Virus record (IMG/VR): IMGVR_UViG_3300045988_096283
Direction: 5' to 3' (one strand)
From: a virus
Length of the DNA: 5,219 nt
Shown in pieces: positions 205-5,219 of the stretch (position 1 is the first letter of the stretch; each line of letters starts with the position of its first letter). A program made the position numbers and the translations under genes. The notes under the pieces are model-generated. The model was not told the origin of the DNA and did not search any database. It worked only from the letters and a program-made list of their open reading frames with translations.

Positions 205-233
205 TTGACATTTTGATTTATTTGATGTATAAT
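205..233 (+). promoter_or_regulatory. Consensus sigma70-type promoter: TTGACA (205..210), 17-nt spacer, TATAAT (228..233)
   Basis: Both hexamers match the consensus exactly and the spacer is the optimal 17 nt. An A/T-rich tract (177..204) lies upstream and is UP-element-like. The predicted start near 240 precedes AAGGAG (249..254) and ATG 265. TTAGATT occurs on both flanks (182..188 and 233..239). Confidence 0.7.
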
Positions 234-264
234 TAGATTATCAAGTGAAAGGAGATTTGAAATA

Positions 265-450
265 ATGAAAAAAAGATCTGTTGAAGGTTATGAGATTGGT
301 AGTGATTTTATTTCCTTTTTTACGAACGAAGGAGAAGTTATTGTTGAATTTAATAAATATCAGTTAGATTGTATTTCTGTTGAAATTCAAGATTATGGTT
401 ATAGTCCTTCTCTTTTAAATGTAATTTCGGAGGTAGAATATGAAGATTAA
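265..450 (+). CDS. Hypothetical small acidic protein (61 aa), accessory ORF A
   Basis: ATG 265 lies 10 nt after AAGGAG (249..254), directly downstream of the consensus promoter. Codons end mostly in T, as in the core genes. The protein has 13 D/E against 4 K/R. I recognise no family. Confidence 0.6.
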   Translation: MKKRSVEGYEIGSDFISFFTNEGEVIVEFNKYQLDCISVEIQDYGYSPSLLNVISEVEYED

Positions 451-658
451 ATTTAGAGTTTCAGGTGAAAATGGTTATTACACAAATGTTGTCTTAGATC
501 CATCTGATCCATATATGTCATATGGTACTTATCGTCGTTTGATTCGCGAGAATAATGGTTTTATTCCTCTTATTTTAGATCCGTCTGGTCTTTTGCGGAC
601 TAATCCTTATATTTTTGGTACTCCTGATGTATATTTGCCTTATGATTGCTCTTTTTAG
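440..658 (+). CDS. Hypothetical protein (72 aa), accessory ORF B, with internal LDPS repeat
   Basis: ATG 440 lies 6 nt after GGAGG (429..433) and overlaps ORF A by 11 nt, suggesting translational coupling. It shows T-ending codon bias. The protein is Y/P/G-rich and contains VVLDPSDPY and LILDPSGLL 27 codons apart. I recognise no family. Confidence 0.6.
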   Translation: MKIKFRVSGENGYYTNVVLDPSDPYMSYGTYRRLIRENNGFIPLILDPSGLLRTNPYIFGTPDVYLPYDCSF

Positions 659-2798: not shown

Positions 2799-2911
2799 GG
2801 CGAAGAAGAATGAGTAGGCGCAAAGATAAGAGAGTTTTTGCCCGTACCGCTGGCAAGACCAAACAAATTAATGTTAAACCCGGAGAATGGAGAGGAGGCA
2901 TAAGATTATGA
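2795..2911 (+). CDS. VP8: VP8-like small arginine-rich DNA-binding/packaging peptide (38 aa, phiX174 J analogue)
   Basis: It is not in the ORF track because it is too short. ATG 2795 lies 6 nt after AAGGAG (2783..2788) and overlaps the VP4 stop as ATGA. The translation is MRRRRMSRRKDKRVFARTAGKTKQINVKPGEWRGGIRL, with 15 of 38 residues K/R. The RGGIRL C-terminus and RR.S.R...R.F.RTA pattern match gokushovirus ORF8 peptides as I recall them. Confidence 0.8.
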   Translation: MRRRRMSRRKDKRVFARTAGKTKQINVKPGEWRGGIRL

Positions 2912-3147
2912 AATATGGTTTATATACTATGAAAGATGAGAAAGTGGGTTATCTTCAGGTTACTCAGGACGTTAATGATTATACAGCTGTTAGGAATTTT
3001 ACCCATGCTATAACGGCCGAAGGCTCTTTATTTAATGCTAATAAGAGTGATTTTAAGCTTTATAAGCTTGGTGAGTTTGATTCTGCTACTGGCGAGATAG
3101 TTCTTTGTCCTACTATTGAGCTTGTTTGTGATGGAGGTAGTTTATAA
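2908..3147 (+). CDS. VP5: VP5-like non-structural protein (79 aa)
   Basis: ATG 2908 overlaps the VP8 stop as ATGA and lies about 9 nt after GGAGG (2894..2898). MKYGLYTMKDEKVGYLQVTQDVNDYTAVRNFTHAI...SDFKLYKLGEFDSATGEI fits the conserved pattern Y...D.K...F..P....N...A.R.F ... DF.L...G.FD..TG.I that I associate with gokushovirus ORF5/VP5. The in-frame ATG at 2887 has its GGAG only 1 nt upstream, so it is disfavoured. Confidence 0.72.
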   Translation: MKYGLYTMKDEKVGYLQVTQDVNDYTAVRNFTHAITAEGSLFNANKSDFKLYKLGEFDSATGEIVLCPTIELVCDGGSL

Positions 3148-3656
3148 TGGATTATCGCACTCAATTTGATGAGCATGAAAGGTTTATTTGTGAGTCTGGA
3201 CGTGAAGAATATGAAGTATATACCGTTGATGATGATGGCAATCCTGTTGTGATTGGTGTTAATAATAGGTATGAGGAGATTCAGTCTCATAGAGAGTCCG
3301 TGGAGCTTTCTGTTCTTTTGCAGCGTTATGCGCAAGGTGATGAAACTGCTCTTAATAAGGTTCATGGTGTATATGAGGATATTGTTGATTCTCCTAAGAC
3401 CCTCGCCGATATTTATGAGTATGTTAAAGACGCTGAGAATAGTTTTAATGGCTTACCCCCCGGACTTAGAGATCTTTTCAATAATTCCCCTGTTGAATTC
3501 TGGCGGCAAGCCGGAACGCCTGAATTTCTTGAGAAGTTTGATAAATTTACTGCTGCCGAAGGATCTAAGAAAAAGGCAGCTAATAGCTCTAATAATAGCG
3601 GCAGTAATAACGATGGTAATTCGTCTAGTGGAAATGGAGGTACTTTGAATGAATAG
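3147..3656 (+). CDS. VP3: VP3 internal scaffolding protein (169 aa)
   Basis: ATG 3147 overlaps the VP5 stop (TAATG) and lies 9 nt after GGAGG (3133..3137). RYEEIQSHRESVELSVLLQRYAQGDETALNKVHGVYEDIVDSPKTLADIYEYVKDAENSFNGLPPGLRDLFNNSPVEFW matches the gokushovirus VP3 pattern (..IQSH...V.....L.R...GD...LN...G.Y.D....PK.L.....F..LP...R..FNN.P.EF). Its position immediately upstream of VP1 is the canonical one. Confidence 0.88.
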   Translation: MDYRTQFDEHERFICESGREEYEVYTVDDDGNPVVIGVNNRYEEIQSHRESVELSVLLQRYAQGDETALNKVHGVYEDIVDSPKTLADIYEYVKDAENSFNGLPPGLRDLFNNSPVEFWRQAGTPEFLEKFDKFTAAEGSKKKAANSSNNSGSNNDGNSSSGNGGTLNE

Positions 3657-5219
3657 GAATCAGAATTCACATTTTTCTAAAAATCCGCAAGTTGATATAC
3701 AGCGTTCGAGGTTTGATCGTTCGCATAGTGTTAAACTTTCCGGCAATGTTGGCGACCTTATTCCTTTTTATTGTGATGAGGTTTTGCCCGGTGATACATT
3801 TCAGATAGATACTTCTAAGCTTATCCGCTTACAGACCCTTGTCACTCCTGTTATGGATAATATTTATCTTGATACCTATTACTTTTTTGTTCCTTGTCGT
3901 CTGGTTTGGGAGCATTGGCGCGAGATGATGGGCGAAAATACTTCTGCCCCTTGGTTTCCTGAAGTTGAATATTCTGTTCCGCAGGTTACTTCTCCGCTTC
4001 CTTCTGGTGGTGGTAGCTCTGGACCCGGCTGGGCTGAAGGTACTATAGCTGATTATATGGGTATTCCTCCTTATGTTGGTAATCTTTCTGTTTCTGCTCT
4101 TCCTTTCCGTGCTTATGCTTTGATATGGAATGAATGGTTTAGGGATGAGAATTTGCAGACTCCTCAGTCTGTTCCTGTTGGTGATGATGTTACTGCTGGT
4201 TCTAACGATTCTTCCGGTCTTTTTCAGGCCGTGAGAGGTGGTTATCCTTTAAAAGCTGGTAAGTTTAGAGATTACTTTACTTCTTGTTTACCTTCTCCTC
4301 AGAAGGGCCCTGATGTATTATTGCCGCTTGGTAATCAGGCCCCTGTATATGGTGGTAATACTTCTAATCTTGTTAGTTATGACGATAGGCCTGGATGGTC
4401 TCTTGATTCTAGTGGTAAGCCATCTTCTTTGATGTTTAGGCATGCCAATGATAATTCTTCTATCATCGGTGATCATGATGTTAAGCTTCATAATGCTTCT
4501 CTTTCTTATACTGGTACTAATAGTGGCGATGGTGTTGATATTTATCCTTCTAATTTGTGGACGGATCTTACACAAGCCACCGCTGCGACCATCAATCAGC
4601 TTCGCTTGGCTTTTCAGATTCAGAGGATATATGAGAAAGATGCCCGAGGTGGTACGAGGTATATTGAGATTTTGTCTAATCATTTTGGCGTTACTTCTCC
4701 TGATAGTCGTTTGCAGAGACCGGAGTATCTTGGCGGTAATCGTATGTTGATTAATGTAAACCAAGTTGTTCAAAATTCTGAATCTGCTACAACTCCGCAG
4801 GGTACAACTACCGCTTATTCCTTGACTGTTGATACCCATTCAGATTTTACTCAGTCTTTTGTTGAGCATGGTTTTTTGATTGGCCTTTGCGTTGCTCGCT
4901 ATGATCATACGTATCAGTGCGGTATTGAACGTTTCTTTAGCCGTAAAAGTCGTTTTGATTATTATTGGCCGTCGCTGGCCAATATTGGTGAACAGCCTGT
5001 ATATAACCGTGAAATATTTGCGCAGGGTACTATTGTTGATGATGGCGTTTTTGGTTATCAAGAGGCTTGGGCGGATTATCGTTATAAACCTAATAGGGTT
5101 TGCGCCGAAATGCGTTCTATTTCTAAAAAATCTCTTGATGCTTGGAATTTGGCTGACGATTATGCTGATCTTCCAATATTGTCGCCTGAGTGGATCGTTG
5201 AGGATAGGACTAATGTAGA
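3649..5219 (+). CDS. VP1: Major capsid protein VP1 (F-like), N-terminal 523 codons. The ORF runs off the window end and finishes at 176 after circularisation (563 aa in total).
   Basis: ATG 3649 lies 8 nt after GGAGG (3636..3640) and overlaps the VP3 end by 8 nt. There is no stop through 5219, so the ORF is absent from the track. It begins MNRNQNSHFSKNPQVDIQRSRFDRSHSVKLSGNVGDLIPFYCDEVLPGDTFQIDTSKLIRLQTLVTPVMDNIYLDTYYFFVPCRLVWEHW. It also contains ATINQLRLAFQIQRIYEKDARGGTRYIEILSNHFGVTSPDSRLQRPEYLGG. Both are hallmark Microviridae capsid blocks. Confidence 0.97.
   Translation, partial: MNRNQNSHFSKNPQVDIQRSRFDRSHSVKLSGNVGDLIPFYCDEVLPGDTFQIDTSKLIRLQTLVTPVMDNIYLDTYYFFVPCRLVWEHWREMMGENTSAPWFPEVEYSVPQVTSPLPSGGGSSGPGWAEGTIADYMGIPPYVGNLSVSALPFRAYALIWNEWFRDENLQTPQSVPVGDDVTAGSNDSSGLFQAVRGGYPLKAGKFRDYFTSCLPSPQKGPDVLLPLGNQAPVYGGNTSNLVSYDDRPGWSLDSSGKPSSLMFRHANDNSSIIGDHDVKLHNASLSYTGTNSGDGVDIYPSNLWTDLTQATAATINQLRLAFQIQRIYEKDARGGTRYIEILSNHFGVTSPDSRLQRPEYLGGNRMLINVNQVVQNSESATTPQGTTTAYSLTVDTHSDFTQSFVEHGFLIGLCVARYDHTYQCGIERFFSRKSRFDYYWPSLANIGEQPVYNREIFAQGTIVDDGVFGYQEAWADYRYKPNRVCAEMRSISKKSLDAWNLADDYADLPILSPEWIVEDRTNV
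5165..5219. repeat. Terminal overlap (right copy); identical to 1..55
   Basis: Exact 55/55 identity with 1..55. It lies inside the VP1 coding frame. Confidence 0.95.

Follow-up and report, generated by a model that had tools for sequence, protein, structure and literature searches.

A promoter-equipped cassette of orphan genes, very probably accessory, between VP1 and VP2 in one clade of gokushoviruses

What is the role of some 600 nucleotides (nt) of DNA that separate VP1 and VP2, two genes that usually lie next to each other in gokushoviruses? The stretch analyzed here, hereafter the window, is the 5,219-nt virus record IMGVR_UViG_3300045988_096283 of IMG/VR. Since its first and last 55 bases are identical (exact terminal redundancy, 1-55 = 5165-5219), the window corresponds to a circularly assembled genome of 5,164 nt, in which the major capsid gene VP1 spans the window ends. 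PHROG and Pfam matches (replication initiation protein, 1e-115; Chlamy_scaf, 2e-28; Phage_ORF5, 2e-19) identified it as a gokushovirus. Between the VP1 stop codon (176) and the ATG of the pilot protein gene VP2 (772) there are 595 nt (177-771), in agreement with the approximate figure of 600 nt given by a first-pass annotation of the sequence.

This interval very probably constitutes a real, clade-specific, promoter-equipped accessory cassette, with one of its open reading frames (ORFs), ORF2, as the core. We also consider it reasonably likely, with less assurance, that the region represents a moron-like transcription unit of accessory genes, specific to this lineage and acting on the host, its defenses, or competing phages. 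That its proteins interfere with the host or its defenses is a tentative proposal, made by analogy. The elements of the interval are the following (aa, amino acids; SD, Shine-Dalgarno sequence; pI, isoelectric point).

177-204, + strand: A/T-rich tract directly 3' of the VP1 stop codon, possible UP element
205-233, + strand: consensus promoter of the sigma-70/sigma-A type (TTGACA at 205-210, 17-nt spacer, TATAAT at 228-233)
248-254, + strand: SD of ORF1, AAAGGAG, 10 nt before the ATG at 265
265-450, + strand: ORF1, a soluble, acidic protein of 61 aa (pI 4.08); facultative in the cassette
429-433, + strand: SD of ORF2, GGAGG, within ORF1 at its 3' end and 6 nt ahead of the ORF2 ATG (440)
440-658, + strand: ORF2, 72 aa, near-neutral (pI 6.05), rich in Tyr and Pro, soluble; constant gene of the cassette
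656-688, + strand: hairpin 1 by RNA folding, extended stem, with the core GGAGGCC-TTTTT-GGCCTCC at 664-682
708-743, + strand: hairpin 2 by RNA folding (GCCTTGGCA...TGCCAAGGC), followed by a U-rich tail, 744-758, immediately upstream of the VP2 SD
759-774, + strand: VP2 SD AAGAGGTG and ATG at 772, the downstream boundary of the insertion

Comparison of the VP1-VP2 interval with related gokushoviruses

A search of IMG/VR with VP1 yielded 80 loci, 65 of which carried VP1 and VP2 on one contig and were used as the outgroup set. The distance from the VP1 stop codon to the VP2 ORF was zero or less in 19 of these loci, 1 to 60 nt in 34, 61 to 110 nt in 8, and 165 to 301 nt in 4. Thus, the gap was at most 110 nt in 61 of the 65 loci, compared with 595 nt here, which bears out the expectation of the annotation that VP2 normally follows VP1 closely. 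On reading, the four longer gaps were seen to contain either a short terminator hairpin or sequence coding for the N terminus of VP2, and no extra gene between VP1 and VP2 was found in any of the 65 loci. The nearest outgroups, L005 and the prophage L109 (each with a 68% identical VP1), do not contain the cassette, the gap in L109 being 9 nt. The short outgroup gaps and the lack of the cassette in the nearest outgroups point to a clade-specific acquisition of the 595 nt, and by sequence comparison the region is a clade-specific insertion. The proposal that the VP1-VP2 gap is a variable hotspot held within this clade but not across gokushoviruses, as judged from the synteny of the 65 related loci.

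Searches with ORF1 and ORF2 led to four relatives in IMG/VR. With the window and 25 further genomes they make up a clade set of 30 genomes, all carrying the cassette, and alignment of their VP1-VP2 intervals gave 22 distinct sequences. In a word-indexed search of a collection of 5.8 billion proteins, ORF1 matched 32 clusters and ORF2 matched 17, with about 200 sequences each. All of these matches were at least 75% identical, and all were on contigs of ∼5.0 to 5.5 kb from JGI, ENA, and Logan metagenomes, several of which appear to derive from human gut cohorts.

Coding capacity and conservation of ORF1 and ORF2

Both of the small, SD-preceded ORFs described by the annotation, one acidic and one rich in Tyr and Pro, were found, overlapping by 11 nt. 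To assess selection, ratios of nonsynonymous to synonymous polymorphism (pN/pS) were summed over pairs of sequences. In frame, ORF1 gave a value of 0.35 (16 distinct, intact sequences) and ORF2 one of 0.23 (19 distinct sequences), whereas off-frame values for the two were 0.97 to 2.55 (five-genome set). The difference argues that ORF1 and ORF2 are real protein-coding genes under purifying selection. In concordance with this, the proportion of T at third codon positions (T3) reached 0.59 in the ORF1 frame and 0.67 in that of ORF2, close to the 0.54 to 0.62 of VP1 to VP5, and fell to 0.28 to 0.32 in the other frames. The T-ending codon bias that the annotation had taken as a sign of real and resident genes is therefore shared with the rest of the genome and specific to the coding frame. 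The constraint on ORF1 and ORF2 was two- to fourfold looser than that on the core genes, which gave pN/pS values of 0.06 to 0.17, VP2 being the lowest of the clade (0.06). The cassette genes also have a lower GC content (0.27 for ORF1 and 0.33 for ORF2) than VP1 (0.41), VP2 (0.44), and the core genes in general (0.35 to 0.44).

Variation was unevenly distributed along both genes. In ORF2, codons 1 to 40 gave pN/pS values of 0.00 to 0.16, compared with 0.67 to 0.90 for codons 49 to 64; the variable patch comprises residue 50 and residues 58 to 62, with three to six alternatives at each of the latter. In ORF1, codons 25 to 32 gave a value of 1.14, and residues 28 and 55 were the most variable.

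ORF2 was intact in all 30 genomes of the clade. ORF1, for its part, had been inactivated in five different ways: by a K42* nonsense mutation (AAG to TAG) in L084 and seven similar contigs; by E40* in L085, accompanied by damaging changes further downstream; by a frameshift in the A-run behind the start codon in L088; by an internal deletion in L100 and L101 that leaves 14 codons; and by a deletion in L102 from the ORF1 SD to the ORF2 SD, which places ORF2 directly behind the ORF1 ribosome-binding site. The promoter and ORF2 were untouched in all five cases. Frames broken in close relatives, named by the annotation as evidence against its proposal, thus do occur for ORF1, independently five times, and not for ORF2. 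An internal repeat in ORF2 (VVLDPS..PY..GT, twice) is weak, since 19 of 1,000 shuffled sequences scored equally high.

An AlphaFold2 model of ORF1 (predicted local distance difference test [pLDDT], 91.3) showed three beta strands followed by two helices. No Foldseek match with an E value of ≤0.001 was obtained for it in PDB or BFVD; the best values, 0.29 and 0.063, respectively, were not used. The C-terminal part of the model (strand 23-28, helix 31-44, and helix 48-59, with the turn G45-Y-S47-P-S49) recalls the ribbon-helix-helix (RHH) topology. In an ungapped alignment with what we take to be the CopG sequence, the would-be DNA-contacting ribbon positions are Glu24, Ile26, and Glu28. No RHH family of Pfam matched ORF1 at an E value of ≤10, and hhalign gave a probability of 2% with CopG. 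An RHH identity of ORF1 was consequently not adopted, the topology being retained as a lead only.

ORF3 and the modular composition of the cassette

A third gene, ORF3, absent from the window, was present in 14 of the 30 clade genomes (L001, L003, L084, L086 to L088, L093 to L095, and L100 to L104), which form one sublineage. It encodes 66 aa (MNNDLFFEFL...PTMK; pI 4.2; T3, 0.55) and in L003 lies directly after the ORF2 stop codon. Its pN/pS was 0.29 in frame versus 0.46 and 1.07 off frame, and it is frameshifted in L001. In L003 and L084 a perfect 12-bp hairpin, GCAGGAGATGGA-AGAC-TCCATCTCCTGC, lies within its coding sequence. Outside the clade, ORF3 had no match in the 5.8-billion-protein search, nor did Pfam or PHROGs contain one.

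The sequences compared show a modular cassette of one to three genes, of which ORF2 is constant and ORF1 and ORF3 are facultative. The two-gene cassette of the annotation is therefore correct for this genome, in which both genes are present, but the number of genes is not fixed in the clade.

In a backbone tree (VP4 to VP3), the ORF3-bearing and ORF3-less genomes formed two lineages; L088, which is not on the tree, was placed with the former by its ORF3 content. All five ORF1 knock-outs belonged either to L085 or to the ORF3-bearing lineage, of which it is the sister, giving 5 of 12 distinct sequences versus 0 of 10. By our own calculation, this skew gives a one-sided Fisher value of ∼0.03, which is statistically weak and suggestive only. 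It hints that ORF1 may be dispensable where ORF3 is present or in the host of that lineage.

Promoter and upstream tract

The perfect TTGACA-N17-TATAAT promoter reported by the annotation, with its A/T-rich upstream tract, was confirmed as the only 12/12 match in the genome, the remaining candidates reaching 9/12. In dinucleotide-shuffled sequences, promoters with at most one mismatch were expected at 0.06 per shuffle and were present in 10 of 200 shuffles.

The promoter was also well conserved. TTGACA was found in 21 of the 22 distinct clade sequences (TTGATA in L099) and TATAAT in 21 as well (TATAGT in L002), both hexamers being unchanged in 20, and since the promoter region is ungapped in the alignment, the spacer measures 17 nt in all 22. 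Nucleotide diversity (pi) in the hexamers was 0.015, compared with 0.11 to 0.14 at third codon positions of the ORFs; on this comparison, the promoter is under selection. The A/T-rich tract at 177-204 gave an intermediate pi (0.066) and may act as an UP element.

An operator-like palindrome over the -10 hexamer, ATAATTnnATTAT, was considered and discarded: it is A/T-rich, the -10 hexamer makes up one of its halves, and L091 has a disrupted version.

Hairpins upstream of VP2

The annotation had noted a GC-rich hairpin behind the two ORFs. This hairpin 1 is indeed present, with its core at 664-682, but it is not a feature of the whole clade: it was found only in genomes lacking ORF3, where it stands in the place of that gene. 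At this point the ORF3-bearing genomes are 185 to 186 nt longer, and the 3' arm of the hairpin aligns with the 3' end of ORF3. As no U-tract lies behind it, hairpin 1 is not a canonical terminator.

The hairpin conserved in the clade is hairpin 2 (pi, 0.042), to which the annotation had not drawn attention. Region 650-775 folds at -45 kcal/mol (z = -3.3). The U711-A740 pair is replaced by C-G in 10 of the 22 distinct sequences, both sides always changing together, and 97.7% of the cells in the alignment are paired, versus 20 to 51% with slid partners; being a single compensated event, this lends modest support to the structure. The interior loop of hairpin 2 is long and its U-run is interrupted, and a simple terminator scan, which covers loops of 3 to 8 nt only, did not report it. 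The arrangement of a U-rich tail with the VP2 SD 16 nt farther downstream is reminiscent of outgroups L005, L060, L065, and L075, in which a hairpin likewise precedes VP2. Hairpin 2 thus looks terminator-like, and a function as a terminator is conceivable from its sequence. No Rfam family matched within the cassette.

Database searches and probable host

In agreement with the annotation, which had recognized no family for either protein, ORF1 and ORF2 gave nothing significant in Pfam, PHROGs, NCBIfam, PADLOC, or PDB sequence profiles. A tblastn search of 50,697 GenBank phages returned no match for ORF1 and nothing better than an E value of ∼10 for ORF2. Among the 5.8 billion proteins, none of the three cassette proteins was found outside the ∼5-kb contigs of this clade. 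An exhaustive hidden Markov model search of 1.84 billion cluster representatives with an ORF2 profile recovered only the family itself and one repeat protein. The latter, P0080 (1,187 aa; E = 2.4e-4), received an hhalign probability of 5.6% and was dismissed as repeat noise. No relative of ORF2 was found in 185,579 GTDB species genomes either.

The cassette proteins and DNA showed no similarity to the rest of the genome, and an origin as core-gene fragments or by internal duplication was rejected; profile hits to core genes, a second outcome that the annotation had regarded as contrary to its proposal, were not obtained. None of ORF1, ORF2, and ORF3 contains a membrane segment (maximum 19-residue hydropathy, 0.66 to 0.98, against a threshold of ∼1.6). 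No likeness to anti-CRISPR (Acr), antirestriction (Ard), or other antidefense proteins was detected in the libraries searched, none of which is dedicated to antidefense, the fold search having covered ORF1 only.

The carriers form one gokushovirus clade whose prophage relatives sit in Clostridia genomes. Related gokushovirus prophages were found in long contigs of a Peptostreptococcaceae metagenome-assembled genome (MAG), of Oscillibacter sp. PC13, and of Muriventricola aceti (Clostridia), and also of Phascolarctobacterium faecium; these integrated relatives (L109, L116, L134, and L119), with VP1 proteins 45 to 68% identical, thus occur in genomes of Clostridia and Negativicutes. Prophage L109 (L109:5602-10720) lies on a 317-kb Peptostreptococcaceae MAG contig, where it occupies ∼5.1 kb between copies of a 20-nt direct repeat, GTGATTTTAGGAATAGTAAT, and is opened between VP2 and VP4. 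The strong SD sequences and the predicted promoter of the sigma-A type are consistent with a host of the Clostridia class.

Proposed function of the cassette

Looser constraint, repeated loss of ORF1, the restriction of ORF3 to one sublineage, and lower GC content all argue that the cassette genes are accessory rather than core. We propose that host RNA polymerase would start at about position 240 on the double-stranded replicative form and produce an abundant short ORF1-ORF2 message. Part of the transcripts would stop at hairpin 2 and the remainder would continue into VP2, so that by analogy hairpin 2 might serve as a leaky terminator attenuating transcription into a low-copy pilot gene. Translation of ORF2 is probably coupled to that of ORF1 through their overlap. 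The benefit of ORF2 would be selected in all members of the clade, and those of ORF1 and ORF3, which could have overlapping or host-dependent roles, would be conditional.

The targets would be the host cell, antiphage defenses, or competing phages, rather than virion assembly, replication, or lysis. Interference with the host or its defenses is favored by the small size and solubility of these orphan proteins, two of them acidic, by their variable patches, and by the loss of ORF1 with retention of the promoter. Roles in assembly, replication, or lysis fit poorly, since cassette-free relatives complete the same life cycle. The local variable patches (residues 28 and 55 of ORF1 and 58 to 62 of ORF2; windowed pN/pS, 0.67 to 1.14), together with the two acidic proteins, hint at an arms race. 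A bolder proposal, which we regard as speculative and somewhat doubtful, is that ORF2 and interchangeable acidic ORF1 and ORF3 found new families of host takeover or antidefense proteins in gokushoviruses of gut Clostridia, expressed from a dedicated consensus promoter, and constitute the first moron-like hotspot of gene turnover with its own promoter to be described in the Microviridae.

Several observations weigh against the interpretation as a moron-like unit directed at the host. The searches revealed no functional homology of any kind for the cassette proteins, so that their function is proposed by analogy. Taken as a whole, both ORF1 and ORF2 have a pN/pS below 1, and these values do not demonstrate diversifying selection. 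The AlphaFold2 model of ORF2 was poor (pLDDT, 54.5) and not searchable; as modeled, the protein may be partly disordered. Hairpin 2 departs from a canonical terminator and has one compensated pair only, and promoter strength, start site, and termination were all deduced from the sequence. The clade has no contig above 6 kb and was never seen integrated, so that lysogeny and a prophage-type moron expression are unsupported for it. Outside the clade, a perfect TTGACA-N16-18-TATAAT occurs in 13 of 106 loci, nearly always singly and on the coding strand. The highest-scoring promoter of L005 and of L109 (10 to 11/12) is located in the VP2-VP4 spacer, which in the window reaches 9/12 only. The promoter described here may thus be the main one of the genome, also feeding VP2, Rep, and the remaining genes, and not private to the cassette. 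The early or autonomous expression suggested by the annotation is a possibility only.

This last possibility forms an explanation of its own, in which the promoter is the principal one of the genome and ORF1 and ORF2 are promoter-proximal passengers or regulators, as an autoregulatory RHH-like ORF1 would be. We consider it rather unlikely, although a number of data agree with it. The promoter is the sole strong one in the genome and is retained despite the deletion of ORF1, the imperfect U-tract of hairpin 2 makes read-through into VP2 likely, and the low score of the VP2-VP4 spacer relative to the outgroups points the same way. In other gokushovirus clades, moreover, the coding strand carries a perfect promoter exactly once, with small ORFs behind it. 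In seven loci of one clade (L062, L064, L066, L070, L071, L075, and L078; VP1 ∼51% identical), a single perfect promoter, TTGACAAAATAGAAAAAGTATGGTATAAT or a close variant, mostly with an extended -10 (e.g., L070:1496-1524), lies between VP4 and VP5. Behind it there is a conserved 61-aa ORF (from 1550 in L070), whole in six of the seven and ending at the contig edge in L062, and usually a second, variable ORF of 34 to 68 aa. In L061, a perfect promoter (4002-4030) right after VP2 precedes a 55-aa ORF at 4052 with weak matches of the RHH type (DUF6290, 2e-4; RHH_1, 0.03), and the C-terminal beta-alpha-alpha arrangement and G-x-S-x-S turn of ORF1 resemble the RHH topology.

On the other hand, VP1 and VP2 overlap in 19 of the 65 outgroup loci, leaving no room for an intergenic promoter, so that VP2 can be expressed without one at this position. 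The purifying selection on ORF2 would also remain unexplained. As for a regulatory ORF1, besides the negligible CopG profile score and the lack of RHH matches in Pfam, the ribbon positions are occupied by Glu in the alignment with the presumed CopG sequence, and the protein is acidic and was repeatedly lost. The combination of a consensus promoter and small orphan ORFs looks like a recurring design in gokushoviruses, not peculiar to this genome. The perfect promoters elsewhere weaken the idea of a private promoter without contradicting the accessory nature of the ORFs, and a main-promoter role is compatible with our preferred explanation, the two not being exclusive.

Far less probable is that ORF2 is an additional virion or assembly protein (decoration, scaffolding, or pilot associated) made abundant by a strong promoter. 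Its presence in every clade genome, its location between the virion genes VP1 and VP2, and its strong expression signals would agree with such a role, but relatives with VP1 proteins 50 to 68% identical assemble without it. Moreover, it is two- to fourfold less constrained than VP1, VP2, and VP3, lacks PHROG or Pfam likeness to microvirus structural families, and yielded a low-confidence model, perhaps because of partial disorder.

Lysis, one of the candidate functions listed by the annotation, did not hold up and is very improbable, whether by ORF2 or by a hydrophobic ORF overprinted on it. Gokushoviruses have no recognized lysis gene (PMC7062461), and some other microvirus families carry lysis-associated accessory genes in the VP1-VP4 interval (PMC9239249), both of which speak for the idea. 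So does the hydrophobic ORF, which lies in the +1 frame over the 3' half of ORF2 (577-705 in the window) and has 35 aa in most relatives (MIRLVFCGLILIFL...RYFDE). In the window, however, the start codon of the relatives is absent and 25 aa remain, from an ATG at 627. The off-frame pN/pS is 1.15 to 2.55, and this ORF was rejected as nonconserved and a by-product of T-rich third positions. In addition to the absence of membrane segments in ORF1 to ORF3, which sets them apart from single-gene lysis proteins of the phiX174 E type, no peptidase or amidase signature was found in the PHROG and Pfam searches, and the close relatives that lack this clade-restricted cassette must lyse their hosts too.

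Finally, a type II toxin-antitoxin or addiction pair, with acidic upstream ORF1 as antitoxin and ORF2 as toxin, is scarcely credible in spite of the two small overlapping genes behind one strong promoter and a nonsignificant PHROG match of ORF1 to an antitoxin family (E = 0.27), since the five independent losses of ORF1 with ORF2 and the promoter intact would be lethal if ORF1 neutralized ORF2, and Pfam, NCBIfam, and PADLOC gave no toxin or antitoxin match.

Comparison with known systems

The moron-like accessory unit that we favor can be compared with several described systems. Morons are reportedly carried by tailed double-stranded DNA phages of the HK97/HK022/lambda family, as Juhala et al. 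and Hendrix et al. are said to have described in 2000. As in morons, the cassette is extra DNA between genes that are adjacent in relatives, with a promoter of its own and a terminator-like end, a base composition unlike that of its flanks, and dispensable genes, apparently of a host interaction type, that are gained and lost between close relatives. Unlike them, its carrier is a 5.2-kb single-stranded DNA (ssDNA) microvirus with very tight packaging limits, its codon usage is already resident-like, with the third-position T bias of the core genes, its terminator is noncanonical, and the clade gives no sign of integration or of expression from a prophage.

Anti-CRISPR and antidefense operons, according to what Stanley et al. 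reportedly described in 2019, have a strong early promoter, small orphan proteins, and an anti-CRISPR-associated (Aca) repressor. The cassette would share with them a promoter predicted to be very strong, small and often acidic orphan proteins, gene turnover with the promoter kept, and variable patches; it differs in that it encodes no helix-turn-helix regulator of the Aca type.

Superinfection exclusion is said to be conferred by a hypervariable region within VP2, the DNA pilot protein of microviruses (attributed to Kirchberger et al., PNAS, 2021). Like that region, the cassette would be a variable, competition-related gokushovirus function located in or beside VP2. However, the region is part of VP2 in temperate microviruses, while the cassette consists of separate genes upstream of VP2 with their own promoter, in a clade in which VP2 is the most conserved gene.

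In phiX174, promoters pA, pB, and pD with leaky terminators grade gene expression, and the pilot gene H lies downstream of a terminator. The layout here is similar, with all genes on one strand, a strong promoter followed by probably attenuating hairpins, and a low-copy pilot gene behind a terminator-like hairpin. The two phages nevertheless belong to different subfamilies, and the promoter-proximal genes are noncore orphans in this case.

A survey of microviruses describes their accessory repertoires as very limited and gene exchange as scarce; the accessory genes include methyltransferases, peptidases, and ∼65-aa peptides of unknown function, and the accessory links between families are mostly small peptides without assignable function (PMC9239249). 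The cassette agrees with those genes in consisting of small ORFs in an intergenic position. The lysis-associated genes of that survey, which occupy the VP1-VP4 interval of families 2, 7, and 14, have recognizable domains, which the cassette proteins lack, and the cassette is defined by a perfect promoter, a feature that the survey did not analyze.

Microviruses are among the most abundant gut phages, and the cassette offers a concrete, widely sampled case in which a 5-kb ssDNA phage gains, loses, and replaces accessory genes, to which it adds a conserved promoter and three orphan protein families. Should these serve in antidefense or host takeover, a class of proteins with such functions would be opened up for ssDNA phages, and comparable units elsewhere between the genes of other gokushovirus clades would make the design a general one. 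Should the promoter be the main one of the genome, it would still help to map the transcription layout of gokushoviruses. Gokushovirus genomes can be synthesized and revived, as the enterogokushovirus EC6098 has been (PMC7062461), and with genes this small the system is directly testable.

Other features of the genome

Every gene of the 5,164-nt genome lies on the + strand. The genes outside the cassette are the following.

3649 across the junction to 176, + strand: VP1, major capsid protein, 563 aa
772-1380, + strand: VP2, pilot protein
1598-1768, + strand: acidic 56-aa ORF directly upstream of VP4 (pI 4.05; T3, 0.77)
1770-2798, + strand: VP4/Rep
2795-2911, + strand: Arg/Lys-rich 38-aa ORF (pI 12), overlapping the end of VP4 and the start of VP5
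2908-3147, + strand: VP5
3147-3656, + strand: VP3, scaffold protein

VP2 matched PHROGs of DNA pilot proteins at 1e-46 to 1e-15. A megablast search of the whole genome against GenBank phages returned VP1 fragments only, with 73 to 79% identity, all from fecal microviruses. The 38-aa ORF matched phrog_10695 (8e-8) and is probably a VP8/J-like DNA-binding protein; its T3 (0.24) is unlike that of all other genes.

The 56-aa acidic ORF is kept across the cassette clade (pN/pS, 0.14) and had no family match. In prophage L109, an ORF at 5663-5866 occupies the equivalent position, and by reading, the two have LDYLV in common.

The spacer between VP2 and VP4 contains three further elements, which may be origin, terminator, or attachment elements.

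1386-1407: strong hairpin, ACTGTCCTA/TAGGACAGT
1414-1450: strong hairpin with a 14-bp stem, GTCAGCCCAATTAC/GTAATTGGGCTGAC
1489-1505: ATTTTAGAATAATATTA

The last of these, ATTTTAGAATAATATTA, resembles ATTTTAGGAATAGTAAT, the direct repeat flanking prophage L109.

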